A stretch of 32,000 bases of DNA, taken from positions 840,001 to 872,000 of the forward strand of contig OY760660.1 in the NCBI GenBank assembly GCA_963663995.1. Direction: 5' to 3'. The DNA comes from Erysipelotrichaceae bacterium. Lineage in GTDB: Bacteria > Bacillota_I > Bacilli_A > Erysipelotrichales > Erysipelotrichaceae. Both the position numbers and the translations under genes were made by a program. Position 1 is the first letter of the stretch, and each line of letters starts with the position of its first letter. Of the stretch, positions 2,078 through 32,000 are shown piece after piece. The notes under the pieces were generated by a model, which worked only from the letters and a program-made list of their open reading frames with translations, did not search any database and was not told the origin of the DNA.

Positions 2078-3043
2078 TTAACCTCTTGTCTTTACTATGT
2101 ATGAAAATATATTCAGTGTGAAGTCACTCAATGTCTTTAAGTACCATCGATACTTTAGTGGTAATTCTTTTATATAAATATTTGATTTCCATTTAGGAAA
2201 ATGATTCGACATCCACTTAAAGCTTTGACTCATTAGTTGTTTACTGAAGTCTGAACGATAAGCTCTGAAACTTCCATACAACATGAGTTGTTCGATCGCT
2301 ACATATTCTAATTCATTTTTAAATTCATTTTCTAAACCTAATTCTGTAAATTTTTTAATAAGTAAATCTAGGATGGTAAATATTTCAAACATTCTGATAT
2401 TAGATTTAGAACCCATAATTGATTGAGTTCTTTGCATATAATGTACTGCTGTTTTATCTGTGTATGAAAAGTTACTGCATAAGGCAAAGATTGGACATGT
2501 TACAGGAATATCTTCATACCATAAATTTAAGGGATATTCAAAATGATGGCATACGAAGAATTCACGTTTGTATAGTTTGTTCCATGCGAAAAGAGGAGAT
2601 AAAAATAGACGTTTTTTATTTATTTCATTTCCTTGATACCCTTTTAAGATCGTAGATTTATCTGTGTTTTCCCACTCATATTTAACATCACATAAAACTA
2701 AGTTTGATTGATCTTTGACGGCAATTGTATAAAGAATTTCAAAGTGATTAGGGTCAATATAATCATCCCCATCAATAAAACCTAAATAATCTCCTGTACA
2801 AAACTTAACCCCATAATTACGGGCATCACTTAGTCCCCCATTTTGTTTTGTAAATGACTTGAAAATGTGAGGATATCTTAAAACAAAATCGTCTATGATT
2901 GATTGAGATTGATCAGTTGATCCATCATTAACGCACAAAACTTCAATCTGATCTAAAGTTTGTTTGGCTAATGAATCTAAACATTTGAAAAGATACTTTT
3001 CTACATTATAGATTGGAACAACTATGCTCACTTTGATGCTCAT
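2078..3043 (-). CDS. Glycosyltransferase family 2 (soluble)
   Basis: 321 aa with VSIVVPIYNVEKYL, VNDGSTDQS, GGLSDARNYG and IDGDDYID motifs. It is a clear paralog of the GT2 at 22153..23100. ATGA start/stop overlap with the upstream gene at 3040..3043. Confidence 0.85.
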   Translation of the reverse strand: MSIKVSIVVPIYNVEKYLFKCLDSLAKQTLDQIEVLCVNDGSTDQSQSIIDDFVLRYPHIFKSFTKQNGGLSDARNYGVKFCTGDYLGFIDGDDYIDPNHFEILYTIAVKDQSNLVLCDVKYEWENTDKSTILKGYQGNEINKKRLFLSPLFAWNKLYKREFFVCHHFEYPLNLWYEDIPVTCPIFALCSNFSYTDKTAVHYMQRTQSIMGSKSNIRMFEIFTILDLLIKKFTELGLENEFKNELEYVAIEQLMLYGSFRAYRSDFSKQLMSQSFKWMSNHFPKWKSNIYIKELPLKYRWYLKTLSDFTLNIFSYIVKTRG

Positions 3044-5103
3044 TGTGTCACCTTACGTAATCTAAATTCATAATTTTCATAGATGACATCTGTACAATCA
3101 TTGATGGCTTGATCAAAGGGAGCATTTTCCCATATTTCATTTATCACATAATCAATATTATATTTAACTAAGTAAGAACAAGATTTTGTGTAGTCTATAT
3201 CCTCAGGACGCTCTTCCCATCCATACCATAGACGCGCTACTTGATAGAAATCTTGATCTATTCTATCCCACGTTGACCAATACTGTCGAGCTGTAAATAC
3301 TTGATAAACGTCTGGTAAAAATGTTCTTAATCCATCAACTTGAGAAACAACTGTAATTTGATGATCACTCGTAATATCTAAACGTTCATATTCATCCTGA
3401 AAAGCTCTAATCACTTCTAATTCACTATTTTTAATTTTATATAAAGGTAAAACAGTTTTACCTTCGTTGATATAGTAGCCATAGGAAGCACCCGTATCTG
3501 CAAGAACAAAACTTTGATAGTTACTAATAATGACAATAGACACAAATGAAACAACGATAAGACTTCGTAAAGATTTGATGTTCCAAAATCGATTTAAAAG
3601 CAGACCAAATATTAATATTTCAGAGAAAACATTGAACAACGATTCAAAAGCTCGATAATATACATTCGAAGCAAACATTCTTGAAATAAAACTTGTTGTG
3701 AGTGGATTTAAGAAGAATAGTAAGACAAATGCTGATTGCCACAAATAATAGTTAATTTGTTTTTGTTTATTTCGGGTAGCGATAAGAGATAGTAAACCTA
3801 ACCATCTAAAAACATTCAACAAGTTATCCATCCAATTAGAATGAATAAATAAATAATCTTTAACCATGTCATAATTTGCATGATTATTAAAATAGTGATA
3901 AATGCTCCAGATATACTCGGGGTGAGTAATCACATCCCAGATCGAATAAGCAATCGCAATTAATGGTAATATCACTAAAAATATTAATTTTGCATGTTTA
4001 GAAACAGTACTATTTATCGATTTTAAGATATTTTGAAATTTCGTATTAAATAACATTGAATAAAATAAAACACTGAAAAGCACTAATGGTAATAAAAGTG
4101 AGATGTAATCTTTATAAACGATGGCTAAAACATATAAAACCATTGGCAATCCAATAAGCGCTACATACTGAAATGCTTCATCATTTTTACTTAAATATAA
4201 ATAAAAAGTAAAACCAAATAAAATTGCAAAACCAATGAATAAAGAAGATGAAGAAGCCGCAATAGATGCACCAAAAATAATGGATGCGAATGCTAAGTAA
4301 TATTTATTGTTTTCTTTAACATAGAGAAATAAGAAGTACATAAACATTGCCATAAACAATGACCGATAGGTATTACCATAAAAAGAAAAAGCTGTTTTCC
4401 AATAATAAAGATTTGTATAAAATAATGTAAAGAAAAGAATGATGTTATCTAACCAAATTGATTTCCAATTAAACGACTTAACAATATTAACAATTAGCAT
4501 CGCAGATATGAGTGAATATATAGAGCCTAATCCCCACATACTAATCACAATACTATCGATTGTAGACCCAATTGAGAGTAAATTTGAAAAAGAATTTACA
4601 AAAACATTTAGGAATGCTGCAAAATGAAAATAACCTTGAAATAAATAGATAGTTACAAACTCACTTCCCCTTAATCCTGTCCATAAATTAAAATCATTTA
4701 ACTTATCAATGTCAACATTTTGCGCAATATAGTTTAAATACATTTGTCCATCAGCACGAGGGATTGATATCGAGGATTTGTAAAAAATCGTGAGAAATAC
4801 AAGAAAAAAAACGAGAATCCAAAGTGTTTCCCATCTTAAATATTCATAAAAAATATCTTTTATATTTAACAAAGAATAAATAAGAAGCAGCCCATAAATT
4901 ATGGTAGTTATTACATGAATATAATAACTACTTAAGTTGAAGAGTTGTATAGGATAATAAAATAATTGAAGTGAAAATAAAAGAAAAGCAAATCCAAGTG
5001 GTGCACTATAGAGTTGTTTAATACTTGTTTTCTTTGTTAAAAAAGAGCCTAAACCTGTTGAAATAAAAATTGTTATTCCAACAACAAAAAATATTTTAAC
5101 CAT
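3040..5103 (-). CDS. Large polytopic membrane protein with soluble C-terminal domain; possible GT-C-type transferase or polymerase
   Basis: 687 aa. Many hydrophobic helices cover the first ~520 aa, followed by a ~150-aa hydrophilic C-terminal domain. ATG at 5103 overlaps the upstream GT2 stop by 8 nt. I recognise no named family motif; the role is inferred only from pairing with the membrane-anchored GT2 upstream. Confidence 0.55.
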   Translation of the reverse strand: MVKIFFVVGITIFISTGLGSFLTKKTSIKQLYSAPLGFAFLLFSLQLFYYPIQLFNLSSYYIHVITTIIYGLLLIYSLLNIKDIFYEYLRWETLWILVFFLVFLTIFYKSSISIPRADGQMYLNYIAQNVDIDKLNDFNLWTGLRGSEFVTIYLFQGYFHFAAFLNVFVNSFSNLLSIGSTIDSIVISMWGLGSIYSLISAMLIVNIVKSFNWKSIWLDNIILFFTLFYTNLYYWKTAFSFYGNTYRSLFMAMFMYFLFLYVKENNKYYLAFASIIFGASIAASSSSLFIGFAILFGFTFYLYLSKNDEAFQYVALIGLPMVLYVLAIVYKDYISLLLPLVLFSVLFYSMLFNTKFQNILKSINSTVSKHAKLIFLVILPLIAIAYSIWDVITHPEYIWSIYHYFNNHANYDMVKDYLFIHSNWMDNLLNVFRWLGLLSLIATRNKQKQINYYLWQSAFVLLFFLNPLTTSFISRMFASNVYYRAFESLFNVFSEILIFGLLLNRFWNIKSLRSLIVVSFVSIVIISNYQSFVLADTGASYGYYINEGKTVLPLYKIKNSELEVIRAFQDEYERLDITSDHQITVVSQVDGLRTFLPDVYQVFTARQYWSTWDRIDQDFYQVARLWYGWEERPEDIDYTKSCSYLVKYNIDYVINEIWENAPFDQAINDCTDVIYENYEFRLRKVTQ

Positions 5104-6135: not shown

Positions 6136-8667
6136 TTATGGAGTAGTTGAAGGTTCTGTAACAGTAGGAGCGACATATTTGTAAACTTCGAATGTAACAA
6201 TAGTATCTTTCCAAACTGTCTTAAGTTTGATAGTACCAGCAACAACGTTTTGTGATTTGATAACCCCATCTTTAGTTTGGTCAGCTATTTCGACTTCTAT
6301 ATAATTACAAATCAATATATTTGTAGAACATAAGTCAGTATCTACAACTGTTTTAAGTTTATCTTTATAATCTAATAATTTATAACCTTCACCATAAACC
6401 TGTACAGCTAAATTTTCCTTAACTTTAATTTTTGACTCTGCAATAGGAACAGTTTTCACTACTGTATTGAGTAGAATTGAATCAAGCGTTGGTACATAGG
6501 TAACGACGATATTATTCTTAGAATACATATTTTCTTCAACCCAAGATTTTGCTTCTTCTAGTGTCCAAGTAAGCATATTAGGTACAATTACTGAATAATT
6601 ACTATCCATAATCGTTAAGTTAAGTGAATCTAAGTTTCTCACATCAGTCCATTCAACAGGAGATTGATCATATACATAACCAATAAAGCTCTTATCAAAA
6701 CGTACATCTGTTTCAGGAATAACAGTGTAAGTTAATTTCACATTATAGTTGTTTGCCCAATCAATGACTTTACTGATAAGTGTTTTTGTTGTAGTGAAAT
6801 CGGGTAGTTTATAGTAACATTCATCATATTTCATATTGTCGCTTATATTACAGTCAAGATCATGTTTTATAACTTTTAATGACAAATTTGAAAAGTTACT
6901 AGTTTTAATACCATATCTAACACTTTGTCCAACAATGTAATTATGTTCAACATCAGATGTATATAATGCGTTCCCAGATTTAATTTCTTCTACAGAAAGT
7001 GTAATCCCTCGTGTTGATGCCCATTCTCTTGCCTTCTCTAGAGTCCAATCGTTATAACTCATCGTTGGCATGTAATCCGGAAGTACTTCATGAATTTCTT
7101 TTTCATCATATGTTCTTGAAAAATAGTCTTCTCTGTATAAAACCAAAGATGCATTAAACTGAACTGATAATTCATCAGTAATATTAGTTGGTTGTGCTAA
7201 ATTTGATTCCATTAAACTTCTTAAATCAGCTATTGATCCTTCATAAGGTTTCATTATCCATAACGGTAATTGTAGTTCTTCGTTATAGAAATAATCAGAA
7301 TATCCTAATACTCTTGAACCAGTAGTTAACAAAATTGAATCAGTTGTTAATCCTGTTTTATTCATAGTCCTTAATAATAAATTAAAGATATCAATCATTT
7401 GACTTAATGGCATGTTTGTTTGGACATTTGCACCTGCAGCATCTAAAACTTCAATGGCTCTATTTATATCTTTCAATTCTAAAGTTCTTTGTATTATTGA
7501 CTGAATAACTGCTTGTTGGTTGACTTGTCTAGTATAATCACCATTTGGCATATGATATCTCTCACGAGCTAAAGCTAAAGCCTGTTCACCTGTAGCCCAA
7601 AAACCACCTTCTGGTACCCAAACTGTATAAGTTCCACGCTGATCATCAGAGTTTTGACCAACAAATTCAACTGGTGAAGTTAACCACACTTTATCCAGAG
7701 CATCTACAATATCCACAACCCCTTGAAAATTAACCGTTAAATAATAATCAATATCAATACCAAATAAATTTGAAACAGTATCAACCGCACATTCTTTACT
7801 TACTGCATAAGCGTGACCTAATTTATCCTTTTCTTGATTGGGATAACATGCAATAGGTACATAACTATCACGAGCAATACTAGTCATAGTAATTGATAGC
7901 GTTACAGGATTAAACGTTGTTAAAATCATACTATCTGAACGTCCACCATCTGTTCCAAACACCAAAATGGTAAATGGATCTTTTGTAACATCTAAATCAG
8001 AACTTTCATTAATTACTTCGTATGTATAGTTAAAGGTATAAACAGTATTTGTCTCTTCTAAAAACGTATTATACCCTTCATAATCTCCATATTGTTTTTG
8101 ATAATCTGCTGGTAATACCGCTATATCAATATCATTGTTAAAAAGACCAAGTAACATTTCATTGTAAGAAATATATTCAACATAACTTACATTAAGTCCC
8201 AAATCTATAATTTCATTCTTAACATATGCATTTCGATCATTTTCATCAGTGTTTGATAAAACACCAAACTTTGCATTATTTAAATCTTCAACAGAAGTCC
8301 AATCATTATGTTGGTAGGATGCAAAAGCAGTTTCAACTGTTGTTTGTTGGTTTCTGTCAACAATAACTTGATTAATACTTGCATTAATTCTAATAAGGTA
8401 ATAATTCCCAAATAATGACATTACTAGAAGAATGGACATAAGAATATATCCACCAATCCACAATAGTTTTCGTTTCAGGATATTACCTTCGATGATTAAA
8501 ATGGCTGAACCAATAACTAATAAGTACAATATAAAAAACAATGAAGCATATATTGTTATATTTAATTTACTATAACTGACGCTTTGAATTAATAAAAATG
8601 TCAAGCTAATAAATGAGAATATGATTGCTGTTAAAGCTGTATAATTTTTTACGGTTTTTTTAAACAT
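6136..8667 (-). CDS. LytR-CpsA-Psr (LCP) family glycopolymer-peptidoglycan ligase with C-terminal PASTA-like repeats
   Basis: 843 aa with N-terminal TM helices. LCP core: FTILVFGTDGGRSDSMILTTFNP, SIARDSYVPI, GHAYA, TVNFQGVVDIVDAL, ARERYHMPNGDYTRQVNQQAV. The C-terminal ~310 aa holds 3-4 repeats of PASTA-like pattern. RBS AGGGAG lies 8 nt upstream of ATG 8667. Confidence 0.85.
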   Translation of the reverse strand: MFKKTVKNYTALTAIIFSFISLTFLLIQSVSYSKLNITIYASLFFILYLLVIGSAILIIEGNILKRKLLWIGGYILMSILLVMSLFGNYYLIRINASINQVIVDRNQQTTVETAFASYQHNDWTSVEDLNNAKFGVLSNTDENDRNAYVKNEIIDLGLNVSYVEYISYNEMLLGLFNNDIDIAVLPADYQKQYGDYEGYNTFLEETNTVYTFNYTYEVINESSDLDVTKDPFTILVFGTDGGRSDSMILTTFNPVTLSITMTSIARDSYVPIACYPNQEKDKLGHAYAVSKECAVDTVSNLFGIDIDYYLTVNFQGVVDIVDALDKVWLTSPVEFVGQNSDDQRGTYTVWVPEGGFWATGEQALALARERYHMPNGDYTRQVNQQAVIQSIIQRTLELKDINRAIEVLDAAGANVQTNMPLSQMIDIFNLLLRTMNKTGLTTDSILLTTGSRVLGYSDYFYNEELQLPLWIMKPYEGSIADLRSLMESNLAQPTNITDELSVQFNASLVLYREDYFSRTYDEKEIHEVLPDYMPTMSYNDWTLEKAREWASTRGITLSVEEIKSGNALYTSDVEHNYIVGQSVRYGIKTSNFSNLSLKVIKHDLDCNISDNMKYDECYYKLPDFTTTKTLISKVIDWANNYNVKLTYTVIPETDVRFDKSFIGYVYDQSPVEWTDVRNLDSLNLTIMDSNYSVIVPNMLTWTLEEAKSWVEENMYSKNNIVVTYVPTLDSILLNTVVKTVPIAESKIKVKENLAVQVYGEGYKLLDYKDKLKTVVDTDLCSTNILICNYIEVEIADQTKDGVIKSQNVVAGTIKLKTVWKDTIVTFEVYKYVAPTVTEPSTTP

Positions 8668-8678
8668 ATTATTACTCC

Positions 8679-9329
8679 CTAATAAAATCTAACAACTTCA
8701 ATACGACCATCTTCGCGTTCTATTAAAGTAATAGCGGCTGAATTTGGGAATAATGTTGTATCAATAATTTCACTTTCTTTATATGTCCAAGATAACTCAA
8801 TATAAAAACTCAAATATGATGTTCCATAATAATCATAATCAACACTATAAGAAGCTATTGAATCAGAAACTGTTTCAACTTCAACCAAATCTGTTAAAGC
8901 GATATTAGTATTTATATAGTCATACATTTTATTGTAATAATAAAGGCGAGATGAAAAGTAAAAGTTAGTACCTTCTTCAGGCATGATAAATTCACTACCA
9001 CCTATATCGTATACCCCTGCTTTATTACTCCAAGTATAATAATCTGCAACAAAACTTTTTGCGACTAACTCAGCTATGACTAGTCTTTGGGGATTATCAC
9101 TTTCAATTTCTGAGGTTAATTTGTCAAATAAATCTCTCTCTAAAGAAGTTGGATTACCTTTTAATGAATAATAATCATTAGAATTAATGACTTGCTCTGC
9201 TTCAGATGAACTATTAGACATAATCCCGAAAACAAAAATAAATATGCCTAAAAAGAGTGTAACAATAAATACTATTAGGCCATAATATAATTTTCGATTA
9301 CGATGAAATCCTTTTATAAATTTTTCCAT
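8679..9329 (-). CDS. Hypothetical membrane-anchored extracytoplasmic protein
   Basis: 216 aa with a single N-terminal TM (YYGLIVFIVTLFLGIFIFVFGI) followed by a Tyr/Ser-rich soluble domain. No family recognised. It lies between a YfhO gene and the LCP gene in the same operon. Confidence 0.6.
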   Translation of the reverse strand: MEKFIKGFHRNRKLYYGLIVFIVTLFLGIFIFVFGIMSNSSSEAEQVINSNDYYSLKGNPTSLERDLFDKLTSEIESDNPQRLVIAELVAKSFVADYYTWSNKAGVYDIGGSEFIMPEEGTNFYFSSRLYYYNKMYDYINTNIALTDLVEVETVSDSIASYSVDYDYYGTSYLSFYIELSWTYKESEIIDTTLFPNSAAITLIEREDGRIEVVRFY

Positions 9330-14824: not shown

Positions 14825-15756
14825 TTTTGTTCACCATTTATAAAAATTTCAATCGAATTTAAGACCTCATCTTTATTTATCAAGTAATGAGAATCCTTAT
14901 TAAATAAGTTTGCATATTTTGTCCACATATTATAAAACTGTGGTTTTCGTTCTAATCTATTGTTAAATTGAACTTTATTTATTTTTTCATATATTTCATA
15001 TGCAAAAACAGGTTCAGTCGCCAAATTTAAAACTTGTATTTCATTCTTTATAGCTACTTCAATATCACTAAAAAGTCGATTAAGCCCATAATATTGAAAA
15101 CAGTCATCTTGATCTGTAAACATTAAACTTGTACAGTTATTATTCTTAAGTACAGTTAATAATAATTCTGATTGATTCTCTTTCAATTTATATGAACCAT
15201 TTACAAATTCATACGATTTTATAATTTCTTGAAAGTCTTCTACACTTATTTGTGATTGAAGTTTTTGATAAAGAGGTGTATTTAAACTTGCTGGGACAGG
15301 GTTCATAAGATCGTAAATGAAGTTCTTTTTTAAACCTTTCCCAAATAATGCCGGTAATCTAAGAATGGATACTTTCTCAAAATATTTGATAGCTAATTCT
15401 TCAGCATATTTACGATTTTTACCATAGGCATGATGATTACTTACATCAAAAAAAGTAGATTCATCTACTTCATCACAATCTGGGAACACATCAATTGTGG
15501 ATATTAAAACAAAGTATCTGGTTTTAACATTTTTTAAAACATTGAACAAGTCATCAATTGATTTTAAATCTTCTTCTGGATATTGATTGGCATACCATTT
15601 TTGAGCACGAATACCCGCACAAACAACTAAGTCATAATCCTCATTAACAATTTCTTCAATATTTTTTGAATTATAAAGATGTGTAAAGTCAAATTGATCC
15701 TTTAAGTTTGATCCAACAAAACCTGTATACCCTATTAATGCTGTTTTTTTATTCAT
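14821..15756 (-). CDS. NAD(P)-dependent epimerase/reductase-like (extended SDR)
   Basis: 311 aa. N-terminal ALIGYTGFVGSNL (GxxGxxG), then LISTIDVF, and HAYGKNRKYAE at the catalytic Tyr/Lys position. 8-nt overlap with the upstream GtrB-like gene. Confidence 0.72.
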   Translation of the reverse strand: MNKKTALIGYTGFVGSNLKDQFDFTHLYNSKNIEEIVNEDYDLVVCAGIRAQKWYANQYPEEDLKSIDDLFNVLKNVKTRYFVLISTIDVFPDCDEVDESTFFDVSNHHAYGKNRKYAEELAIKYFEKVSILRLPALFGKGLKKNFIYDLMNPVPASLNTPLYQKLQSQISVEDFQEIIKSYEFVNGSYKLKENQSELLLTVLKNNNCTSLMFTDQDDCFQYYGLNRLFSDIEVAIKNEIQVLNLATEPVFAYEIYEKINKVQFNNRLERKPQFYNMWTKYANLFNKDSHYLINKDEVLNSIEIFINGEQK

Positions 15757-16678
15757 TATTTTTTAAATCACTTTCAAAATATTCTTTAATAATATAATTT
15801 GGTCTTCCCTTTATTTCAATAAACAACAAAGCCATATATTCAGCAATAATACTTAAAAATATAAACACGAAAGCAAATAGCCAAAAATAAACAAGAGCAC
15901 TTATACTTTGTTCAAAGTTTTTCTCGATTAATAAATATATTGAAAAGATAAATAAGATTATTACATATAAACTTGTAAACAAAGAAACAAGCTTTAAAGG
16001 TTGGTTGGTTGAGACCAAAATATTATGTTTTGCTAATTTTAGTTTTTTGGGAATATTATATTTAGTAACCCCTGCTGCTCGATCAATATCTTCATAGCCG
16101 ATATAGGTTGTTTTAAACCCCACCCATGACCATATATTTTTAATATATCTTCTATTTTCCTTTAAACTTAAAATTGTTTGCGCAACTTGTTTAGTAAATA
16201 GTCGATATTCTCTTTCATTATTCATTACTTTATCGTTGCTTAAAATATTAAAAATTCGATAGTAAGTTTCAGAGTAAAGTTTAGTAAAGAGTGATTGTGA
16301 TTTACGTGAAGTACGATATGTTCCAACTTGATCATAACCTTCATTTTCAATTTTACTAATCATTTCAGATAATAAATAAGGGGGATCTTGTAGGTCAGCA
16401 TCCATTAAAGCTATTAAATCACCTTTAGCACTTTTTAAACCTGCTTCAATGACACCTTCTTTACCAAAGTTTCGAGATAAACTAATACCAGTAATATTTT
16501 TATCTTTTTCTGACAAGTTTTTAATAATATTAAAAGTATCATCGTTACTACCATCATTCACAAAGATAATTTCATAGTTTCTTTTTAATGATATTAGAAC
16601 TTTAGTTAATTCAAGATAAGTTGTTTCAATAACTGCTTCTTCATTGAAACAAGGGATGATAACTGATAAAGTTTTCAT
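15749..16678 (-). CDS. Polyprenyl-phosphate sugar synthase, GtrB/CsbB-type GT2
   Basis: 309 aa with LSVIIPCFNEE, VNDGSNDDT, SRNFGKE and DADLQDPP motifs, two C-terminal TMs and a terminal GRPNYIIKE box. ATGA overlap with the upstream fusion gene at 16675..16678. Confidence 0.9.
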   Translation of the reverse strand: MKTLSVIIPCFNEEAVIETTYLELTKVLISLKRNYEIIFVNDGSNDDTFNIIKNLSEKDKNITGISLSRNFGKEGVIEAGLKSAKGDLIALMDADLQDPPYLLSEMISKIENEGYDQVGTYRTSRKSQSLFTKLYSETYYRIFNILSNDKVMNNEREYRLFTKQVAQTILSLKENRRYIKNIWSWVGFKTTYIGYEDIDRAAGVTKYNIPKKLKLAKHNILVSTNQPLKLVSLFTSLYVIILFIFSIYLLIEKNFEQSISALVYFWLFAFVFIFLSIIAEYMALLFIEIKGRPNYIIKEYFESDLKNNE

Positions 16679-19600
16679 ACTTTTTTAAATCTCCTATTAC
16701 CTTTTATCTTTTCAAATGACTTCAAACCAAAGATTACAGAAATTAATCCAACAAAAATAGCAGATAAATATCCACTAATCTTTTGTATAAGTGTACCATT
16801 ATAAAAAATATAAAGTCTACCTTCTTTAATATCACCTAAATCAACATTTAAAAGTGATTTGCTATCTTTTGTTGTTTTCAATAAGATATATTTACCATTA
16901 TCATCATAGAATGCTCCATAACCTTTATAGTACAAAAGTGGTAATTCTAATTGCGTATTTATATAAGCACCCTGATTAAAATCAACTACATAATTTAGTT
17001 GATTGTTTGAGTATGATATTTCAATAGGGTTTGAGGCATTTATAACTTTATTAGATGCATTTTGAGCTAAATTATCCATGTCAGCACTTTCAGGTAAAAA
17101 TTCAGCATAGTAATATTCAATTGAATACCTAGGGAAATTATCATACCAATACCCAATCATTTTTACATTATAGTAATAGTTAGTCATATATAGGTATTGA
17201 ACAGATATTAAAACTAAAGTTAAAACTTGGATCCACTTGCCTTTTTCAATAACGATTTCATTTATAAAATATGCGGTTAAAATACTTAAGAAAAAAGTTA
17301 ATACAAAATATAGTCTAAATGGAAATTGAATAAAATTAAGGAAAGATATCCAGTTAATTGGTATCACATTTGACACAATAAATAAAGTTGCTAGTGAAAT
17401 AATAAAAGAAAATAATAGTACTTGATTTTTTATAATACTCTTAAATCTAAAAATCAATCCAATAATTGGAATTAAAAATAAATACCATTCTATACCATTA
17501 GGAAATACAGCGAGTTGAGGACTGATAAAAACCAATTGAAAAATGTTATTTATTACATGTTCATGTAAATTAGTCCATGGTGTTTGATATTGGAAAGTAT
17601 CACTAAACATCATTTCTAGTAAAGGTAACCAATAGAATGCTGTTAATCCCAACGTAATGAATATTGCGAACAATATTTGTTTAATTTTATTTAATGAATG
17701 AATAAGAATTTTATAATTGAAAAGCGCGAAAATGAATAAAATAATAACCATAACAATGGTTGTAATCGTATGCGTTAAAATTAATCCAGACATGGAAAAA
17801 GCTAAAAGATAAGCTCTTGGTTTTTCATCATTTATTATTTTATATAATCCTAGAAAAACTAAAGGTACAAAGATGAATGCAACCCATTCACCTAAGGCTG
17901 CTCTTTCAAAAAAATCAGTGTAATTTCTATACACTGAAAAAGTATATAAAAAACTTGCTAATAGAGCTGCAGAACTTGATTTAAATAGATACTTTGAAGT
18001 CCAATACATTGAAAGTGCTGTAAGTAACGTTATTATTACTGCAAATATTTTATAGCTCAATATGAGGCTTAAACCAAAGTCCATCAAATAAACCGGAATA
18101 TAAAATAAACCTAAAGGGTAAAACAAGTTCACTGGATATCCATAACCATAATAAAAACCAGGTAATATTTTTAATTCACTAATATTAGATCTTAAAAGTT
18201 CAAATGATCCAACGATTCGTGAAAAATGATAAATAAGATCATGCCCAGAAGGTATACCTTTTAAAAGCATTGGAAAAATAAAAACAATTGGGATTAAAGT
18301 TAAAGAAATTAAATTTCTTTTTATTTTAAAAAATTTCATTAAATTTTGTTGTTTGTTTTTATGTTTAAAGAATTTTCGAACTTCGAAAAAGATTAAGAAA
18401 ATCAGTAAAATAAATCCAATAAATGTAGTTATCGCTCCTAACTTAAATCCTTCAGGCATAAAATACATTTTTATTGTGTTATCACCTGCATTAATAGGAA
18501 AACCTACAAACCCACCATTTACAGCATAGATTGGCACTGACTCATTGTTGACTGTTACTTTCCATCCCTTATCAAAAGCAATTGATGTTACAACAAAATT
18601 TCTATCTTCACTATAAATGTCTCCTAATAATAGATTCTGATATTTTTCAACATTTTTTATTGAAGCACTCGATGCATCTGATAAATAGGTTTTAATTATT
18701 TCAACATCATTTTCATCTGCAATTATTGTTTGATTTATGAGTGATATATCAGGATTTTTTACATAATCATCATAACTAATAACAAAATTATATGAGTTTG
18801 CGATAGGTCTATATTGATTATTTAGATAAAGTGGTAATCCATAAAAATCACCTATTAAAATAAAGTTTGAATGAGGCAATTCAGATTCACTAGTTACAAT
18901 TGAGTATTTAACACTCGCAAAATCTATGATGTCAGGGTTTGTAATATTCCAAGTCCAACCAAAACCTCGATCTAAACTAATAAGCTTAGATAAATTATCA
19001 ACACTATATTGATAGGTTGAATCATATGTTTTAACATCTGAATAATTATATAAAAGATTCATATTCAAACTTGAATACCAATAAATTGAATCATACGGTG
19101 CATAAATTCGATAATAACCATAATCACCATCTAATTCTTGAAGGTATTGGTTCAATTGATCCGGTGTTTTACCTAAAACAGTTTCTGATTTATTTACAAA
19201 GTCCCAATCTAACTTCTTATAGTTTGGATTCATATTAAACGTAAGATAACTTGCGAATATTATCTCAACTACTGAAATTATGATAATCCAAGTCTTTTTA
19301 TTCTTGTTATCCTTGAATAACACAAAATATATAACCCAAATAAAAATAATAGTTATGATGAACACTATCCATTGAAATGTATTATTGAAAGGATTTACAT
19401 TTAAAATCATAGATAAAACAGGAATATTCAAAAAAATTAGAAGCGAAATAATTAGTGATGTTTTTTTGAGTATTTTTAAATCAATAAATTCTATTTTATT
19501 AAAATATTTCATAGCTAGAACAATATTTAAAAAAATTAAGAACAAAGTCCATCGAAAAGAGTGTTCACTTAATCCATGCATAAATGAACCACCAATTGGA

Positions 19601-20652
19601 AATACTAAAAGAATTATCATAATGCTATAAAATATTCTATTTATTAGTTTATTTTCTTTATCAAAGATACTTTGTCCTAACATTAATGCTGTGAAAGATC
19701 CGCTAAATAACATAAGTTCACGTGTTTGATAAGTTATAGATTCATAAATAGACGTATATTGTTCAATTCCATTATTATTAACAATTTGACTGATAAAAGT
19801 CGAACTAGGGACAAAATGTGCAATTAACAAATGAAAATATACTCTTATATCCTCAAAATAAAAATGTGAATTTGTTGAATTAAACAATCTTGAATTTTGT
19901 AATAATAATAAGACACCAGGTACTATAAGAATAGCTGATAACAAAAAACCAAGTAAATATAAAGCAATTAAAGGAAATGCACTTTTTAAATATTGCTTTC
20001 TATGTTCTTCAAAAAATCGATAAGTATAATAAATTAGTGTAAAAATCGACAATGTATAAAACAAATAAAAATTCATAATCAACATTAAAGCAGTCATTAT
20101 GGCATAAAAAAAGTAAACTTTCTTTTTCATAGCCAATTCTAAACTTGCAAAATATAAAGGTACGAAGCTATAAAAACTTAAATATATTGGAACTTCTACA
20201 TATTTTAATGCCCAAGCAGAAAAAGTAAACAATAGAGCACCAAGAATTCTTGTATATTTATCCCAGTTTCTAACTCTTCCATAGATGTAAAAAGAAAGAG
20301 CAGCTGAAATAAATTTTAAAACGCTCAATATCATCACTATATTGTAGTAATGATTATTTATAAGAATTCCTAAATAGCTATATATATCTCCAAAAATGTA
20401 ATATGACTTAGCCGCTAAAAAATTATTCCCAAAAAACATATTCCAAGACCAAAAGGGAAAAGTTTTTTGTTTTATAGCATTTACGATTAAACGTCTAAAC
20501 TCAATAAAAAATAAACGATATTGTGTTCTTGAGTCAAACCCAATAACAAAAGCTTTACCCTCAATAATATAAGGTACCATTATGAAAGCAGTAATTAATA
20601 TTACAAAACTAATTAAAATTAATATTGGAAAGTATTTCTTTATTAATTTCAT
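16675..20652 (-). CDS. Fusion of two GT-C-like membrane modules: N-terminal YfhO-family plus C-terminal COG5617/PTPS-related-like
   Basis: Continuous ORF. ORF-track residues 1-777 form a complete YfhO: multi-TM region, extracytoplasmic domain, VTSIAFDKGWKVTVNNESVPIYAVNGGFVGFPINAGDNTIKMYF, final TM, basic tail. Residues 778-1331 begin MKFFKIKRN..GIPSGHDLIYHFSRIV..GYGYPVNLFYPLGLFYIP and form a second multi-TM protein with its own extracytoplasmic domain and terminal TM. The ORF-track start at 20670 is TTG. I prefer ATG 20652..20650, which has GGAAGGA upstream and shares one base with the upstream TGA (TGATG). Confidence 0.8.
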   Translation of the reverse strand: MKLIKKYFPILILISFVILITAFIMVPYIIEGKAFVIGFDSRTQYRLFFIEFRRLIVNAIKQKTFPFWSWNMFFGNNFLAAKSYYIFGDIYSYLGILINNHYYNIVMILSVLKFISAALSFYIYGRVRNWDKYTRILGALLFTFSAWALKYVEVPIYLSFYSFVPLYFASLELAMKKKVYFFYAIMTALMLIMNFYLFYTLSIFTLIYYTYRFFEEHRKQYLKSAFPLIALYLLGFLLSAILIVPGVLLLLQNSRLFNSTNSHFYFEDIRVYFHLLIAHFVPSSTFISQIVNNNGIEQYTSIYESITYQTRELMLFSGSFTALMLGQSIFDKENKLINRIFYSIMIILLVFPIGGSFMHGLSEHSFRWTLFLIFLNIVLAMKYFNKIEFIDLKILKKTSLIISLLIFLNIPVLSMILNVNPFNNTFQWIVFIITIIFIWVIYFVLFKDNKNKKTWIIIISVVEIIFASYLTFNMNPNYKKLDWDFVNKSETVLGKTPDQLNQYLQELDGDYGYYRIYAPYDSIYWYSSLNMNLLYNYSDVKTYDSTYQYSVDNLSKLISLDRGFGWTWNITNPDIIDFASVKYSIVTSESELPHSNFILIGDFYGLPLYLNNQYRPIANSYNFVISYDDYVKNPDISLINQTIIADENDVEIIKTYLSDASSASIKNVEKYQNLLLGDIYSEDRNFVVTSIAFDKGWKVTVNNESVPIYAVNGGFVGFPINAGDNTIKMYFMPEGFKLGAITTFIGFILLIFLIFFEVRKFFKHKNKQQNLMKFFKIKRNLISLTLIPIVFIFPMLLKGIPSGHDLIYHFSRIVGSFELLRSNISELKILPGFYYGYGYPVNLFYPLGLFYIPVYLMDFGLSLILSYKIFAVIITLLTALSMYWTSKYLFKSSSAALLASFLYTFSVYRNYTDFFERAALGEWVAFIFVPLVFLGLYKIINDEKPRAYLLAFSMSGLILTHTITTIVMVIILFIFALFNYKILIHSLNKIKQILFAIFITLGLTAFYWLPLLEMMFSDTFQYQTPWTNLHEHVINNIFQLVFISPQLAVFPNGIEWYLFLIPIIGLIFRFKSIIKNQVLLFSFIISLATLFIVSNVIPINWISFLNFIQFPFRLYFVLTFFLSILTAYFINEIVIEKGKWIQVLTLVLISVQYLYMTNYYYNVKMIGYWYDNFPRYSIEYYYAEFLPESADMDNLAQNASNKVINASNPIEISYSNNQLNYVVDFNQGAYINTQLELPLLYYKGYGAFYDDNGKYILLKTTKDSKSLLNVDLGDIKEGRLYIFYNGTLIQKISGYLSAIFVGLISVIFGLKSFEKIKGNRRFKKV

Positions 20653-22145
20653 CAATATGATTCCTTCCAATAAAAGATAACATCTGTGTCCATTGGAATA
20701 TTATTATAAATTTTAAAGGCTTCCATGTGATAGCTATCTTCTTCTTCGATATCACCAGCATGTATGGTATAGATAGGATAGCGAGGTAACCAAATGCCTG
20801 TTGTATACTGATCTGAATATAGATGATAATCATCTAGTATCATTTCACGTTCATGATAAATATTGGCTACAGCATTATATTTGATATAAAAGGTACGCAC
20901 ATCTATAAATGACATAACAATTAAAATTACGATCATTCCATTTTTTATTAGCCTATTAATTTCTATGATTTCCAAAATTAATACAAAACTTATAAACATA
21001 TAAAATACAGCATATAAAATTAAGCGAGAACCAATAACTGGTGACATCAAAAGGCTTGCACTACTTAAACTTGCAATGCCCATAAATATAATTAAATACG
21101 GTTGTTTTAATTTATAAATATTTAAACGTATTATCTGACTCAAAAGTAAAACAATATAAAGAACCCAAAACAACATTGACCACCACTGTGTCACATCAAA
21201 TAAACGAGCAGTTTGGGGTAAATATTGTATTAATCTTGTGTTTAATAAATATATTATCGCTATTCCATAAACCAGAATACTCATTACAAATTCAATTTTT
21301 GAGAAAGTCTTATAACTTACATAGATTAATAGGCAAGATAGAGAAAAAATAATGACTTTATTTTGAATGAATACATAATTTATAATTTGAGGTAAATTTC
21401 TAAGTACTTTTTCAAAAATGCTTAATGTTTGCCATTCAGGCATAGTAGCTAATCGGATATTTGATCCAGGACTTAAATACCATATGACAAAGGCAATTCC
21501 ATAAAAAATAATCGAAACAATTAGTATCGGATGAACTTTTTTTTGTTTATAAAAATCATAAACAATTAAACTTAAAACCACAAATCCAATAGCTATACTT
21601 ATATTTTCCATACCTAATGGTAGATAAAAAGATGTAAATGCAACTAGGATATAAGAAATCCAATTTTCTTTACCTTTAAATAGTGAATTTGTTATTGTGA
21701 ATAATAATACTATAGATAACCATAAGGGTATTCCATAATAGATAGAACCTGTTATCCAAGTATAGGTTTCCATACGAATATTATCTTTTATAGATACTAT
21801 AAAGAAAAATAAAAATAATAATGATAATTTTTGATTCTCTTTTTTAATAAATGAAGATAACAAATAAAATGTATTGGCAAAAATAAATGCATTTAATAGA
21901 TTCCATATTTCTTTATATTGAATCAGTGTATGCATAGAAAACAGGGTCATTAAACGACCTTCCCAGTGAAAATACATACCAATAGCAGCATCTACAACAT
22001 TAGATTTGACGACGTTGTTATGGAATGCCCAATCATCTCCTGACAAAGGTGTTTTATAGGAAATATAATAAAACAAACAAAAAACAATAGATGTCATCAT
22101 TAATCTAAAACGATTATCTTTTACATATTTGATTATTTCACCCAT
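20652..22145 (-). CDS. Polytopic membrane protein, GT-C-like (acidic DD motif in first external loop)
   Basis: 497 aa, hydrophobic throughout. The first loop after TM1 reads KTPLSGDDWAFHN, placing a DD pair where GT-C enzymes carry catalytic Asp residues. The same feature occurs in the 451-aa protein at 24159 (GFIDDNAY). GAGGG RBS lies 5 nt upstream of ATG 22145. Confidence 0.6.
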   Translation of the reverse strand: MGEIIKYVKDNRFRLMMTSIVFCLFYYISYKTPLSGDDWAFHNNVVKSNVVDAAIGMYFHWEGRLMTLFSMHTLIQYKEIWNLLNAFIFANTFYLLSSFIKKENQKLSLLFLFFFIVSIKDNIRMETYTWITGSIYYGIPLWLSIVLLFTITNSLFKGKENWISYILVAFTSFYLPLGMENISIAIGFVVLSLIVYDFYKQKKVHPILIVSIIFYGIAFVIWYLSPGSNIRLATMPEWQTLSIFEKVLRNLPQIINYVFIQNKVIIFSLSCLLIYVSYKTFSKIEFVMSILVYGIAIIYLLNTRLIQYLPQTARLFDVTQWWSMLFWVLYIVLLLSQIIRLNIYKLKQPYLIIFMGIASLSSASLLMSPVIGSRLILYAVFYMFISFVLILEIIEINRLIKNGMIVILIVMSFIDVRTFYIKYNAVANIYHEREMILDDYHLYSDQYTTGIWLPRYPIYTIHAGDIEEEDSYHMEAFKIYNNIPMDTDVIFYWKESY

Positions 22146-28062: not shown

Positions 28063-28992
28063 TTAAAAATTTATTCTTTTCTCTTCTATTACAAGTGGAC
28101 GGTTCATAATTCGTTGATTAATACTAATAATGTACTCACCAATTATTCCTAAAAAAACAAGTGTTACTGAATTAAACAAAAACAAACCAATGATAATTGG
28201 CGCAAATCCAGCTGTAAAAGTATCCCAATACATAAGCTTTAAGAAGAGATAAATCATTGCAATTCCTAGGCTTATAATTGCTCCGCTAAATCCAATAAAT
28301 GATGCTATCCTTAATCCAATTTTAGTATAAGAAACAAAACCTATCATGGCTGCATCATATAGTTTAAAAAAATTATTACTGGATTTACCTGCTCTTCTCT
28401 TTGCCTGCAAAAAATCAATTTTTTTAATTTTAAATCCTAATTCACTAACTATACCTCTGAAATACGGTTGAGGGTCCTTTAAATCCCGTAACACTTGTAT
28501 AAAATCTTTATCATATAGTCCAAATCCAGTGAAATGTTCAATTTGTTCGACATCTGATGCATATTTAATTAATTTATAAAAAAGTGTTCTAAGAAAGTGC
28601 AATACTGGATTTACTAAACTTTTACTCTTAATTCCAATTACAATTTTATTGCCAGCTTCCCATTCTTTTATAAAGTCTGGGATTCTTTCCAATGGATCTT
28701 GAAAATCTGCAGACATTGTTATAACACAATCACCTGATGTCTGTAATAAACCATAATAAGGTGAATTAAATTGGCCAAAATTTCTTGCATTAAATATTGC
28801 TTTTATATTTGGGTTTTTATTGCATATATTTTCAAGCAAAGCTTGTGTCTTATCTATAGAATGGTTATCTATAAATATTATTTCATAAGTATATTTCTCG
28901 AAAGACTTAAGAATTTTACTTAATTCTTGTGCCATCAATTCAATATTCTCTTCTTCATTATATGTTGGAATTAATATACTAATTTTTTTCAT
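28063..28992 (-). CDS. Polyprenyl-phosphate sugar synthase, GtrB/ArnC-type GT2
   Basis: 309 aa with ISILIPTYNEEENI, IDNHSIDKT, ARNFGQ and SADFQDPL motifs, two C-terminal TMs, and GEYIISINQRIMNRPLVI. ATGA overlap with the upstream epimerase at 28989..28992. Confidence 0.85.
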   Translation of the reverse strand: MKKISILIPTYNEEENIELMAQELSKILKSFEKYTYEIIFIDNHSIDKTQALLENICNKNPNIKAIFNARNFGQFNSPYYGLLQTSGDCVITMSADFQDPLERIPDFIKEWEAGNKIVIGIKSKSLVNPVLHFLRTLFYKLIKYASDVEQIEHFTGFGLYDKDFIQVLRDLKDPQPYFRGIVSELGFKIKKIDFLQAKRRAGKSSNNFFKLYDAAMIGFVSYTKIGLRIASFIGFSGAIISLGIAMIYLFLKLMYWDTFTAGFAPIIIGLFLFNSVTLVFLGIIGEYIISINQRIMNRPLVIEEKRINF

Positions 28993-29897
28993 AATTTTTC
29001 CCCTAAAATAATATTCTTTATACCCTCATTAAAAAGAGTTATCGGTTCAAATCCAACATCTAACTTTAAGTCAGAAATATCTGCTATTAAATGCATAACT
29101 TGGTTTTGTGAATATGGATTTTCTCCGAAAACTAAATCATACTTTGGATTTATTATATCTCTAACATCTTTTATATAATCTTTTAAAGGTTTTCCAATTC
29201 CGCCACCTAAACAATATATCTTATTATTTAAGTCTTTAGATTTAGCAAGTAAATAAAATGCTTGAGCAGCATCAGCTGAATATAAATAATCCCATATCTG
29301 TTCTCCAGCAGTAAGCCGTATGGATGTATTTGTGGATATATTATTAATTAAACTCATAATTAAAGTGTTTTTATCATCATTTGGCCCATAGATACTAAAA
29401 ACTCTTACCCATAAATTTCTTATATTAAGTGTTTTACATAAACTTCTGCTCATATGACCTGCAGTCAATTTAGCAATTCCATATCCTGTTTCCGGATTCG
29501 TTAGTGATTTAGGACTGAGAATTGTATTACTTCTTCCAAACTCAGCCTGTGAACCAGCACCAATAAATAATGAACACCCTAGCTTATTGGCCAAATGGAC
29601 AGCATCTAATGTATAAATAACATTGTCCAGTTGATGATATAAATCATCTCTACCAATACCTATTGTTCCGTCCCACGCAAAATGAAAAAATACATCATAT
29701 TGCTTTGAAATATTTAAAATTTTAAGATTATTTAAATTGCATTCTATAACTTCTACATATATTGATTTAGGAATCAAATTAATATTTTGTGATCCTTCAC
29801 GAACAATTGCTAAAACATATATCTTTTCAGATATCATTTTTTTAATTAAAGCTATTCCAATTGTTCCTGTTGGTCCAGTAATAACAATACTATTCAT
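28989..29897 (-). CDS. NAD-dependent sugar epimerase/dehydratase family (extended SDR)
   Basis: 302 aa with IVITGPTGTIGIAL (GxxGxxG), FIGAGSQAEFG, and YGIAK (YxxxK). Confidence 0.8.
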   Translation of the reverse strand: MNSIVITGPTGTIGIALIKKMISEKIYVLAIVREGSQNINLIPKSIYVEVIECNLNNLKILNISKQYDVFFHFAWDGTIGIGRDDLYHQLDNVIYTLDAVHLANKLGCSLFIGAGSQAEFGRSNTILSPKSLTNPETGYGIAKLTAGHMSRSLCKTLNIRNLWVRVFSIYGPNDDKNTLIMSLINNISTNTSIRLTAGEQIWDYLYSADAAQAFYLLAKSKDLNNKIYCLGGGIGKPLKDYIKDVRDIINPKYDLVFGENPYSQNQVMHLIADISDLKLDVGFEPITLFNEGIKNIILGEKL

Positions 29898-29900
29898 TTC

Positions 29901-30954
29901 TTACTCAACAATAAATGGTGTAAATTCAAAACCATATTTAATTTCATCAATATTAATATCATCAACTACAGATAAGTTCATACTATCATCAATTAAAATT
30001 GCTCTTATTGAGTCGTTTAATTGCTTTTTGTCTTTTTTAATTGAATCAACCAAATCTGTTAACTTTAAATTATATTTCTTTGTTTTTATAATTTGATTTA
30101 AAATAGTTTCAGTTCTAGAGATATAGTTTTCGTTAAGGAGTCCTCGTTTAAATGAAATTCTATTAGCAACTATCATTCCAATCGCAACAGCAGTTCCATG
30201 TGGTACTTTATAATTTGTTGCTGATTCGATAGCATGTCCAAAGGTATGGGCAAAGTTTAACAATACTCTCTCATTACGATCAAATTCATCTTTTTGAATA
30301 TAATTTTTTTTAAAATTTAATGAAAAAGTATTATATTTTATGATAGTTTTTGAATCTCTCTTTAATAATAAATCAACATCTTTTTCAAGTCGATTTAACC
30401 CCTCAAATCCATACATTAAGTTGAATTTAACAACTTCTCCTAGACCACTTAAATAATCCATTTCAAGTAAACTTTTAAAAAAAATTTGTATTTATATATA
30501 TTTTTGTTGGTGGATAAAAAGTTCCTAATAAATTCTTAAAATTCTTGTAGTTAAGAGATGTTTTCCCTCCAATACAACTATCAGCTGATGCTAACAATGT
30601 TGTTGGAAAAAACACCCAATCTATCCCTCGATATAACACATTCGCAATAAAACCAGTTAAATCTTGAACAATACCACCGCCAATTGAAACTAATCTAGCA
30701 TTTCTTTTCCCTGGTATTTCAATCATCTTATCTAAAATATTAAATACTGTTTTTATGTTTTTATTTTTTTCAGTGGCTTTTAACAAAAATAATCTATTTG
30801 AAGGTATGCCATCTAAAAAATCATTGCTATAAAGTGAATAGACTTTGCTATCAACAACATAAAATGTGTTTTTGTTATCATAAATGATGTCAAATATTGA
30901 TGATTTTTTTGTAAATGTAACTTCGTAATTTTTTAGTTGTGATTTAATTTTCAT
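29901..30954 (-). pseudogene. 3-dehydroquinate synthase-like sugar-phosphate cyclase family gene, split by a +1-base frameshift in a T8 (plus-strand A8) tract
   Basis: ORF 30475..30954 carries the N-terminal DHQS motifs (GGGIVQDLTGFIANVLYRGIDWVFFPTTLLASADSCIGGKTSLN, KNLLGTFYPP). ORF 29901..30461 carries the C-terminal motifs (GLGEVVKFNLMYG, LNFAHTFGHAIE, HGTAVAIGM). Removing one base from A8 at 30477..30484 joins them as ...INTNFFKSLLEMDYLSGLGEVVKF..., about 349 aa. I prefer start ATG 30954 (ATGA overlap with the SDR stop) over ATG 31020, which lies inside the SDR gene. Confidence 0.8.
30477..30484. repeat. A8/T8 homopolymer at the frameshift site of the DHQS-like gene
   Basis: Read directly from the sequence: cttttAAAAAAAAtttg. 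The premature TAA (complement of 30475..30477) uses the last T of the tract. Confidence 0.95.
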
Positions 30955-31616
30955 TGAACTGAATAGCCCCCATCGATTACAATTTCTTGACCTGTAATAT
31001 ATGTATTTTTTTCGGAACATAAATAAAAAACTATTTCAGCAATTTCTTCTGGTTGAGCTAGTCTTTTTAATGGAATGGTTTCTGCTATTTTTCCTATTTG
31101 TTCTGTTGAATTATTTTTACTTGTTAGTTCTGTTAATGTAAACCCTGGGCATACTGTATTAACGAGTATATTTTCATTTGCTACTTCAAGAGCTAACGTT
31201 GTTGTGATTCCATGAATACCTCTTTTTGTTGCACTATAAATTCCTCTTCCAGGTTTTGAAACAACTGACCATATTGATGCAATATTTACAATCCTTCCAT
31301 ACTTTTGAGTTTTCATTTTTGGAACAAATGATTTAAGTAGATAGATAGGCGCGATTAAATTTATATTGAATGTATTTTCGATATCTGTTTCTTTAACATT
31401 TTCAATAAGATTAATTTCATTTATTCCAGCATTATTTACTAAAACATCATAGGTATCATTTTTATGATTCTCAATAAATTTTTTAATTGAGTCTATATTG
31501 CTTAAATCTAGTTCATTTCTTGTGGGTGCATAAACAAAATAACCATTACTTTCAAATATTTTTTTAATTTCTAATCCAATCCCTCTAGAACCACCTGTCA
31601 ATAAAACTTTTTTCAT
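30951..31616 (-). CDS. Short-chain dehydrogenase/reductase (classical SDR, FabG-like)
   Basis: MKKVLLTGGSRGIG (TGxxxGxG), NNAGI, and SxxxxxxxxxxxxYSATK (catalytic Ser/Tyr/Lys). I prefer ATG 31616 (GGAG 8 nt upstream, 1 nt after the upstream stop) over ATG 31643, which lies inside the TPP-enzyme gene. Confidence 0.88.
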   Translation of the reverse strand: MKKVLLTGGSRGIGLEIKKIFESNGYFVYAPTRNELDLSNIDSIKKFIENHKNDTYDVLVNNAGINEINLIENVKETDIENTFNINLIAPIYLLKSFVPKMKTQKYGRIVNIASIWSVVSKPGRGIYSATKRGIHGITTTLALEVANENILVNTVCPGFTLTELTSKNNSTEQIGKIAETIPLKRLAQPEEIAEIVFYLCSEKNTYITGQEIVIDGGYSVQ

Positions 31617-31617
31617 T

Positions 31618-32000
31618 TTATTCTCCAAATTTAATACTTTCATATTCTTCTCGATCTAAGAATGGAAACATATCATCTATTCTTGGAGAAACTATCGTTC
31701 CATCTTCTAAAACTTTTGATGATAATTTTGGTTCAAAGTTTTGTTCTACATCTAAAATAACTTCGCATAGAATTGGACCTTTTTCTCTTAACACATTGTT
31801 TAATATTTCATCTAATTTGGAATGGTTATCAATTTTTTTATATTTTATATCATATGCATATGCAATTTTTTCCAACTCAGGAAAACTTACACCATTATCA
31901 GAACACACACCTATTAAATCTTTTTTAGTCAAGTTCTTTTGAGTTTGTCTAATCGAGTGATATCCATTATTATTTAGCACAAATAAAACAATATCTAAAT
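31618..32000 (-). CDS. Thiamine-diphosphate-dependent enzyme (acetolactate-synthase-like), C-terminal part; 5' end off the window
   Basis: The frame stays open to position 32000: translation upstream of the ORF-track GTG reads LDIVLFVLNNNGYHSIRQTQ, the NN-GY-x-IR-x-Q segment of the TPP-binding C-terminal domain of ALS/IolD/YerE-type enzymes. Only ~127 codons are visible, so the subfamily is unknown. Confidence 0.72.
   Translation of the reverse strand, partial: LDIVLFVLNNNGYHSIRQTQKNLTKKDLIGVCSDNGVSFPELEKIAYAYDIKYKKIDNHSKLDEILNNVLREKGPILCEVILDVEQNFEPKLSSKVLEDGTIVSPRIDDMFPFLDREEYESIKFGE

Follow-up and report, generated by a model that had tools for sequence, protein, structure and literature searches.

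This study concerns a long protein-coding gene in a 32,000-nucleotide stretch of DNA from an Erysipelotrichaceae bacterium (assembly GCA_963663995.1, contig OY760660.1, positions 840,001 to 872,000 of the forward strand); the whole stretch is called the window below. One open reading frame (ORF) on the minus strand of the window (16675..20652) encodes a full-length YfhO module followed, in the same frame, by a second and shorter membrane module. The ORF runs for 1325 aa from the ATG at 20652 to the stop codon at 16675-16677, and its product, with a predicted mass of 155.2 kDa, is 100% identical to a public record (P0121, 1325 aa). As the GC content of the window is 27.5%, an open frame of 1325 codons is far beyond chance. 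Judged by sequence and predicted fold, the product is a tandem of two paralogous GT-C glycosyltransferases, the second being a short YfhO with a reduced ectodomain. We consider the ORF to be a real gene fusion with a probability of roughly 0.6 to 0.7.

The maximal ORF extends further upstream to a TTG at 20670 (16675..20670, minus strand, 1331 aa). However, translation more likely begins with the ATG at 20652, which overlaps the stop codon of the upstream gene by 1 nt, has AAGGA 9 nt upstream, and agrees with P0121. An earlier reading of the same DNA from its letters alone (the original prediction) had given the coordinates 16675-20652 and the single frame correctly; its length of 1331 aa and its residue 778 for the second start were counted from the TTG, whereas its coordinates correspond to 1325 aa. 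Residues are numbered from the ATG below.

Module 1 (residues 1-771; 18340..20652, minus strand) is assigned as a full-length YfhO-family GT-C glycosyltransferase by its Pfam match, its structural model, and its fold matches in the PDB, which agree with the complete YfhO that had been predicted. It matched Pfam YfhO (PF09586) with 204.7 bits (E 3.6e-60; gathering cut-off, 28.5 bits) over profile positions 2-599 and the C-terminal part, and its C-terminal domain matched PgfM1/PgfM2 of NCBIfam. The AlphaFold2 (AF2) model has a predicted local distance difference test score (pLDDT) of 88.7 and a predicted template-modelling score (pTM) of 0.90. In this model, a core of transmembrane (TM) helices reaches to about residue 473, followed by an ectodomain of about 260 aa (about 475-733), mixed in structure over residues 480-731, and a terminal TM helix (736-770). 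The structure matches in the PDB included AftD, ArnT, STT3, and PglB, with E down to 1e-6, and all the significant ones were GT-C. The YfhO-family alignment (A2) has 22 invariant columns, all of which are in the window sequence by construction. The alignment and hhalign point to D40 in a GFD motif (codon at 20533..20535, minus strand), an invariant Asp after TM1, as the putative catalytic acid.

Module 2 (residues 772-1325, 554 aa; 16678..18339, minus strand) is, according to Pfam, alignment, AF2, and hhalign, a short YfhO-like GT-C glycosyltransferase on the border between YfhO, PTPS_related, and DUF6541. It matched Pfam YfhO with 36.2 bits (E 3.2e-9), above the cut-off of 28.5 bits, over profile positions 75-386 of 835 only. 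A weak signal was obtained for PMT_2 (20 bits), the match to PTPS_related (PF10131; 14.7 bits, E 0.011) was below the gathering cut-off of 26.4 bits, and Pfam gave no match to DUF6541 (PF20176; gathering cut-off, 29 bits) in module 2 of the window. The relatives of module 2 are membrane proteins of 545-570 aa, the best of which are 43-46% identical to it over more than 90% of the length. Among 51 relatives, Pfam matches were found to YfhO in 20, to PTPS_related in 16 (E <= 1e-3), and to DUF6541 in 13, and some relatives are named PTPS-related by NCBI. The resemblance to PTPS-related proteins that had been suggested therefore holds for the family, although module 2 of the window is itself below the cut-off.

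The AlphaFold model of module 2 (pLDDT 89.6; pTM 0.90) comprises a TM core and a terminal TM helix together with a small beta-sandwich (about 75 residues, at about 440-513 of the module). It does not have the full-length YfhO architecture with a large ectodomain; its ectodomain is the one beta-sandwich. The top 28 Foldseek matches in the PDB (E down to 3e-5; TM-score, 0.40-0.48) were all GT-C and included STT3, AftA, AglB, PglB, ArnT, DPY19, AftD, Pmt4, and EmbB. Both the model and these matches bear out the prediction that the C-terminal half is a complete GT-C-like enzyme that has an ectodomain and a terminal TM helix of its own; the original prediction had named the absence of such a fold as evidence against itself, and the fold was found.

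In the alignment of the module 2 family (A1, 51 sequences), 22 columns are invariant and are in the window by construction. They include D34 of the module (D805 of the fused product; codon at 18238..18240, minus strand), located by this alignment and hhalign in the GHD motif (GHDxxFH) just after TM1. The motifs GYGY, RAALGE, and LPLLYYKGY are also common to module 2 and its relatives. An hhalign comparison of the module 2 family with the YfhO family gave 98.1% probability (E 7.4e-14, 214 columns), and its register puts D34 opposite D40 of YfhO. We regard the two modules as paralogues because both folds are GT-C, the profiles are linked to each other, and the invariant Asp residues are aligned. 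The original prediction had placed the second module in a different GT-C-like class; this is ruled out by the Pfam YfhO match above the cut-off and the hhalign probability.

The seam between the modules contains no stop codon. It reads ...FFEVRKFFKHKNKQQNL on the YfhO side and MKFFKIKRNLISL... on the other, with an internal ATG at 18339..18337, exactly as had been described before. The Met encoded there (Met772) is aligned with the start position of the stand-alone homologues of module 2. The junction linker (residues 764-778, EVRKFFKHKNKQQNL-M...; 18319..18363, minus strand) is, from sequence and hydropathy, basic and cytoplasmic, with five K/R and no D/E, and is flanked by two strong hydrophobic segments. 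A TAATG lies at the seam (18337..18341, minus strand), in which the ATG (18339-18337) is overlapped by a TAA (18341-18339) one base out of frame. No Shine-Dalgarno (SD)-like motif precedes the internal ATG, as the original prediction had noted, and the 25 nt upstream contain no G.

Fusions of the same module types were found in other lineages. An exhaustive HMMER search of 1.84 billion representatives with a junction-spanning query of 1200 aa returned a protein of 1351 aa (P0238), with one alignment running across the seam. It consists of a full-length YfhO (466 bits) directly followed by a short module, and this C-terminal module matched DUF6541 with 34 bits. A further protein with the same order, P0324 (1358 aa), is 67% identical to P0238 over the full length and was found on a 393-kb contig and a second contig. 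The opposite order, a short module and then YfhO, was found in P0328, which has five members on five contigs, all of 1374 aa (one at L083:3877-8001), and in a protein of 1449 aa from an Oscillospiraceae metagenome-assembled genome (L062:3890-8236; JAFLUB010000006.1). In addition, P0263 (1150 aa) has two short modules in tandem. In a rough neighbor-joining tree, the fused forms are in four separate clades amid split or solitary relatives. The fusion of YfhO and the short GT-C thus appears, on this tree, to have arisen at least four times independently, and it can be stable. As separate genes, YfhO and the short GT-C are direct neighbors, in both orders, in about 10 of the 76 loci from named genomes and in five metagenomic relatives; roughly 4 of about 20 lineages with the adjacency have the fusion. 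Because both orders of fusion exist with short basic linkers, each module must have both termini in the cytoplasm. Hydropathy agrees with this, and the junction is topologically compatible, as had been predicted.

Other arrangements were observed in the same families. Two short GT-C proteins have other additions, namely, a C-terminal CelD_N and GH9-like domain (P0321, 999 aa) and an extension of 470 aa (P0192, 1014 aa). PF04138, which we take to be the GtrA family, is also present in many YfhO proteins with a length of about 990 aa (P0400-P0439), so that these proteins would be YfhO-flippase fusions. In Bacteroidota (Dysgonomonas / Prevotella), the short GT-C genes form tandem arrays of 3 to 6 or more paralogues with no adjoining YfhO (L020-L022, L029, L031, L035, L038, L041, L044, L048, L050, L057, L058, and L066). 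In a more distant relative (L084:5001-9576; P0133, 36% identity), the gene after YfhO is a second full-length YfhO (758 aa) instead of the short GT-C, with the same 8-nt overlap as in the split relatives described below.

At the seam of P0328, the SD and ATG of the split relatives have been erased, and P0238 is likewise without them. This observation bears on the possibility that the in-frame ORF of the window is real and yet module 2 is also, or solely, made as a separate protein, by internal initiation at Met772 or by cleavage of the linker, in which case the gene would functionally encode two enzymes. The ATG is kept exactly at the start of the stand-alone homologues and its leader is A/U-rich. 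Furthermore, about one-third of the window genes have no recognizable SD, so that SD-less initiation occurs in the source genome. However, the internal ATG itself has no SD, and the fused state offers no upstream termination for coupled re-initiation. The single-chain form is viable, since the mature fusions P0328 and P0238 have lost both the ATG and the SD. We consider separate production of module 2 improbable.

The nearest relatives of the locus have the two modules as separate genes. Five syntenic contigs (43-52% identity) have a block of a glycosyltransferase family 2 (GT2) gene, DUF6056, YfhO (768-771 aa), and the short GT-C (542-561 aa). In four of the five, the tail of YfhO contains an SD (AGGAG, AGGTG, or AAGG) located 7-8 nt upstream of the second ATG; no such SD is present in the window. 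The homologues closest to module 1 (49-52% identity) have lengths of 765-771 aa, and all the 273 homologues retrieved with module 2 as the query were unfused. The original prediction had proposed to examine whether orthologues are split or fused; the nearest are split, and independent fusions of the same module types exist elsewhere. It had also stated that a stop codon or frameshift at the junction in orthologues would indicate two ordinary adjacent genes. A stop and a frame change are found there in all the five nearest syntenic relatives, albeit these are different species from the source.

The difference from the split state is small. The tail of YfhO in the window, EVRKFFKHKNK, aligns with the tails of the relatives, such as EYRKKFRWKKNA*; thus, the frame change with respect to a split ancestor is confined to the last five or so codons (aaa caa caa aat tta). 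Removal of one base from the last tail codons gives ...KHKNKQQI followed by a TAA that overlaps the ATG, and the other off-frame stops 14 nt past the ATG. One base thus distinguishes the fused gene from the split pair, and the fusion is either young or an assembly indel. Programmed frameshifting was also considered and was dropped, as the deposited sequence is already in frame, no slippery site or structure having been looked for.

Several observations weigh against a real fusion. The fusion of the window is known from one assembly and one record only, and the next relatives, at most 52% identical, are all split. All the five syntenic relatives encode YfhO and the short GT-C by two genes, which differ in frame and overlap by at least 8 nt. 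At the seam of the window, the start ATG and the overlapping out-of-frame TAA persist, as would be seen after a one-base assembly error. As for same-species sequence, exact look-ups of the fused protein and of the product of a neighboring gene in a contig index gave no match, a scan of species-representative genomes with one protein as the query gave no relatives, and a metagenome scan gave no match with species-specific DNA anchors around the junction; a junction-spanning protein fragment gave none either. Finally, a 3-dehydroquinate-synthase-like gene 12 kb away (29901-31020, minus strand) is broken exactly at a run of eight T residues (T8; 30477-30484), its N-domain ORF (30475..31020) and C-domain ORF (29901..30461) being in different frames. 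Deletion of one T from this run gives a continuous dehydroquinate-synthase-like protein, ...TNFFKSLLEMDYLSGLGEVVKF. The split gene is either a pseudogene, a phase-variable gene, or an assembly indel; indels, real or artefactual, do occur in the window sequence.

In the rival reading, an artefact of assembly or sequencing, the organism would have two overlapping genes like its relatives, and a base wrongly added to or dropped from the A-rich tail (aaa caa caa aat tta ATG) would have brought them into one frame in the deposited sequence. One base fewer would restore a stop/start overlap in the style found elsewhere in the cluster, and the source is a single contig of 1.95 Mb, which would fit a long-read assembly. 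On the other hand, the runs at the junction where a base could have been gained or lost measure only 3-4 nt. As for A/T runs of 4-7 nt, the window has about 850 of them, and all the other genes are intact and of normal length except the one at the T8 run. Because so many runs are present with no other broken gene, the indel rate at short runs must be very low, and a short-run error at the seam is a priori unlikely. The window also has no counterpart of the SD that precedes the second ATG in four of the five split relatives. Moreover, the same modules are truly fused in at least three other lineages. The TAATG might seem a nearly decisive sign of a very recent indel or error, but it is weaker evidence than that, as a stop is reached in either off-frame no more than 14 nt from the ATG and such stops are frequent in DNA of 27% GC. 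Taken together, we judge a sequencing or assembly artefact to be unlikely, but serious enough to be kept in mind, and prefer a real gene fusion.

The frameshifted gene nearby in the same cluster, and the restriction of the fusion to the source genome, might also indicate a locus in decay, with a fusion that is real but disabling and one or both modules dead. This is very improbable, since the invariant and nearly invariant residues of the two families are all kept, both halves fold confidently in AF2 with compatible topology, and equivalent fusions persist elsewhere, as seen in the pair with 67% identity and in the protein found on five contigs.

The fused gene is located between two overlapping neighbors on the same strand. 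Downstream, a gene for a GtrB/ArnC/PgfS-like polyprenyl-phosphate glycosyltransferase (15749..16678, minus strand, 309 aa; Pfam GT2) overlaps the stop of the fused ORF by 4 nt. Its product matched GtrB (PDB 5EKP) over the full length with E 7.9e-49 and ArnC with 1e-36, and its best NCBIfam match was PgfS (221 bits, compared with a cut-off of 500 bits). From these matches, it is likely to be the maker of a lipid-linked sugar donor. Upstream, a gene for a DUF6056 / GT_STM0557_N membrane protein (20652..22145, minus strand, 497 aa), which is syntenic with the YfhO gene in relatives, overlaps the ATG of the fused ORF by 1 nt.

By its gene content, the window is a locus for a wall polysaccharide, with most of the genes on one strand. 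It includes rmlC, rmlD, an LCP (LytR-CpsA-Psr) ligase, and nine GT2, as well as the short GT-C, two DUF6056, and three YfhO modules. Three of the nine GT2 are full-length GtrB/ArnC-type polyprenyl-phosphate glycosyltransferases of 309 aa (5EKP, E 8e-49, 6e-80, and 9e-41). No match to GtrA or Polysacc_synt was found among the window ORFs of at least 100 aa other than a plus-strand ORF of 119 aa (29737..30096, antisense to annotated genes), and no flippase was identified in the window. Relatives of the locus have a Polysacc_synt gene nearby, and the flippase gene may be outside the window.

The LCP glycopolymer ligase (6136-8667, minus strand, 843 aa) has C-terminal PASTA-like repeats (Pfam PASTA, 693-754; NCBIfam PknB_PASTA, 655-812), which is an unusual combination. 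Neither Pfam nor NCBIfam gave a match for a protein of 687 aa with about 10 hydrophobic segments (3040-5103, minus strand) or for a single-TM protein of 216 aa (8679-9329, minus strand). Two relatives (L002 and L003) have unannotated proteins of a size similar to the 687-aa protein (690 and 686 aa). In the region 28063-32000 (minus strand), genes for a thiamine pyrophosphate (TPP)-dependent enzyme, a short-chain dehydrogenase/reductase, the dehydroquinate-synthase-like protein, and an epimerase lie upstream of those encoding a GtrB-like GT2 and a YfhO. In L084:1-4926, too, a TPP enzyme gene directly precedes a YfhO, after which come a GT2 (310 aa) and two more YfhO genes. These arrangements hint at a pathway for an unusual sugar or cyclitol donor linked to one YfhO enzyme.

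We propose the following origin and function for the fused gene. In the ancestral state, the second gene would have overlapped the YfhO gene and been translationally coupled to it. An indel of one base among the final few codons for the cytoplasmic tail of YfhO would then have removed the stop and joined the frame with that of the next gene. The product would be a tandem GT-C enzyme of about 155 kDa, in which YfhO is tethered to its short paralogue by the 15-residue basic cytoplasmic linker. Multi-component transmembrane glycosylation starts with a GT-A enzyme that makes a C55-P-sugar; once this has been moved outward by a flippase, a GT-C enzyme transfers the sugar outside the membrane (PMC8035078). 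By analogy, the GtrB/PgfS-like GT2 coupled to the fused gene may load a sugar onto undecaprenyl phosphate (Und-P) at the cytoplasmic face, and a flippase would move the lipid-linked sugar outward. Each GT-C module, by means of the invariant Asp in its first extracytoplasmic loop (D40 and D805), would then transfer a sugar from a polyprenyl-phosphate-linked donor to an extracytoplasmic acceptor, most likely the rhamnose-containing wall polysaccharide or teichoic-acid-like polymer built by the locus and attached by its LCP enzyme. The two modules might act at two positions on the polymer, as SccM and SccQ, which belong to several GT-A/GT-C pairs acting on one rhamnan (10.1101/2024.05.09.593426). 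Alternatively, they might act in succession, in the manner suggested for PgfM1 and PgfM2, which are YfhO-type GT-Cs that share a pathway (PMC12041528). We infer that one polypeptide is made, and likewise its donors, its acceptors, and the choice between sequential action and different positions; the addition of two different sugars, or priming and extension, which the original prediction had suggested, is also an inference. Taken as a whole, a young fusion that encodes a tandem GT-C enzyme for glycosylation from lipid donors is the best explanation, and our confidence in it is within the range given above for the fusion itself.

The recurrent adjacency in both orders, together with at least four independent fusions, is the kind of 'Rosetta stone' trace that might be left by an obligate functional pair. 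The YfhO and the short GT-C could form a heterodimer or a sequential two-step machine, in which the ectodomain of YfhO supplies acceptor-polymer binding for the small GT-C. We offer this as a tentative and rather doubtful reading. If true, it would settle a point left open in PMC8035078, namely, whether a small GT-C enzyme depends on a partner protein to recognize its acceptor.

The GT-C enzymes that decorate wall polymers in Gram-positive bacteria are treated as single-module proteins, each with one lipid-sugar synthase. The adjacency and the fusions are genomic evidence of joint action on one polymer. They give the uncharacterized short family (PTPS_related / DUF6541) a testable role and point to a single chain of natural origin that could serve in structural studies of a GT-C pair. 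As one base in an A-rich tail separates the fused state from the split state, our finding also suggests that such architectures need a check of the reads before they are catalogued.

Among known systems, module 1 is like CsbB/YfhO (PMC8035078, PMC5836110), in that it is a full-length Pfam YfhO with the GT-C fold and a conserved Asp after TM1 and adjoins a GtrB/CsbB-type Und-P sugar synthase. However, the described YfhO enzymes are single-module, whereas the YfhO of the window is covalently joined to a second GT-C. In the Pgf system of Streptococcus mutans (PgfS, PgfM1, PgfE, and PgfM2), a single operon encodes two YfhO-type GT-Cs together with a GT-A synthase of Und-P sugar and an epimerase-family protein. 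The window similarly has YfhO::short GT-C, then the PgfS-like GT2, and then an epimerase-family ORF. Its products are, however, far below the equivalog cut-offs (PgfS, 221 vs 500 bits; PgfM1, 47.6 vs 1400 bits; PgfM2, 61.4 vs 1500 bits). The Pgf GT-Cs are separate full-length proteins and their acceptor is a protein, whereas the context of the window (rmlCD, LCP, and many GT2s) points to a wall polysaccharide. On sequence grounds, the fused enzyme system works like Pgf but is not a member of it. The stand-alone short YfhO-like / PTPS_related / DUF6541 proteins (about 545-570 aa) are homologous to module 2, but are unfused and belong to an uncharacterized family. The SccN/SccM and SccP/SccQ systems of S. 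mutans and the GacI/GacL-type systems, which serve the side-chain glycosylation of rhamnose polysaccharides, resemble the window in having rml genes and several GtrB-like synthases and GT-Cs that decorate one polymer (10.1101/2024.05.09.593426); they have other GT-C families, and no fusions have been described in them. A covalent GT-C-GT-C fusion is not mentioned in the review PMC8035078 (neither 'fusion' nor 'fused' occurs in it) and did not turn up in literature searches, whereas GT-C-GT-C tandem proteins are present, unannotated, in public databases. The component parts of the fused enzyme belong to known families.

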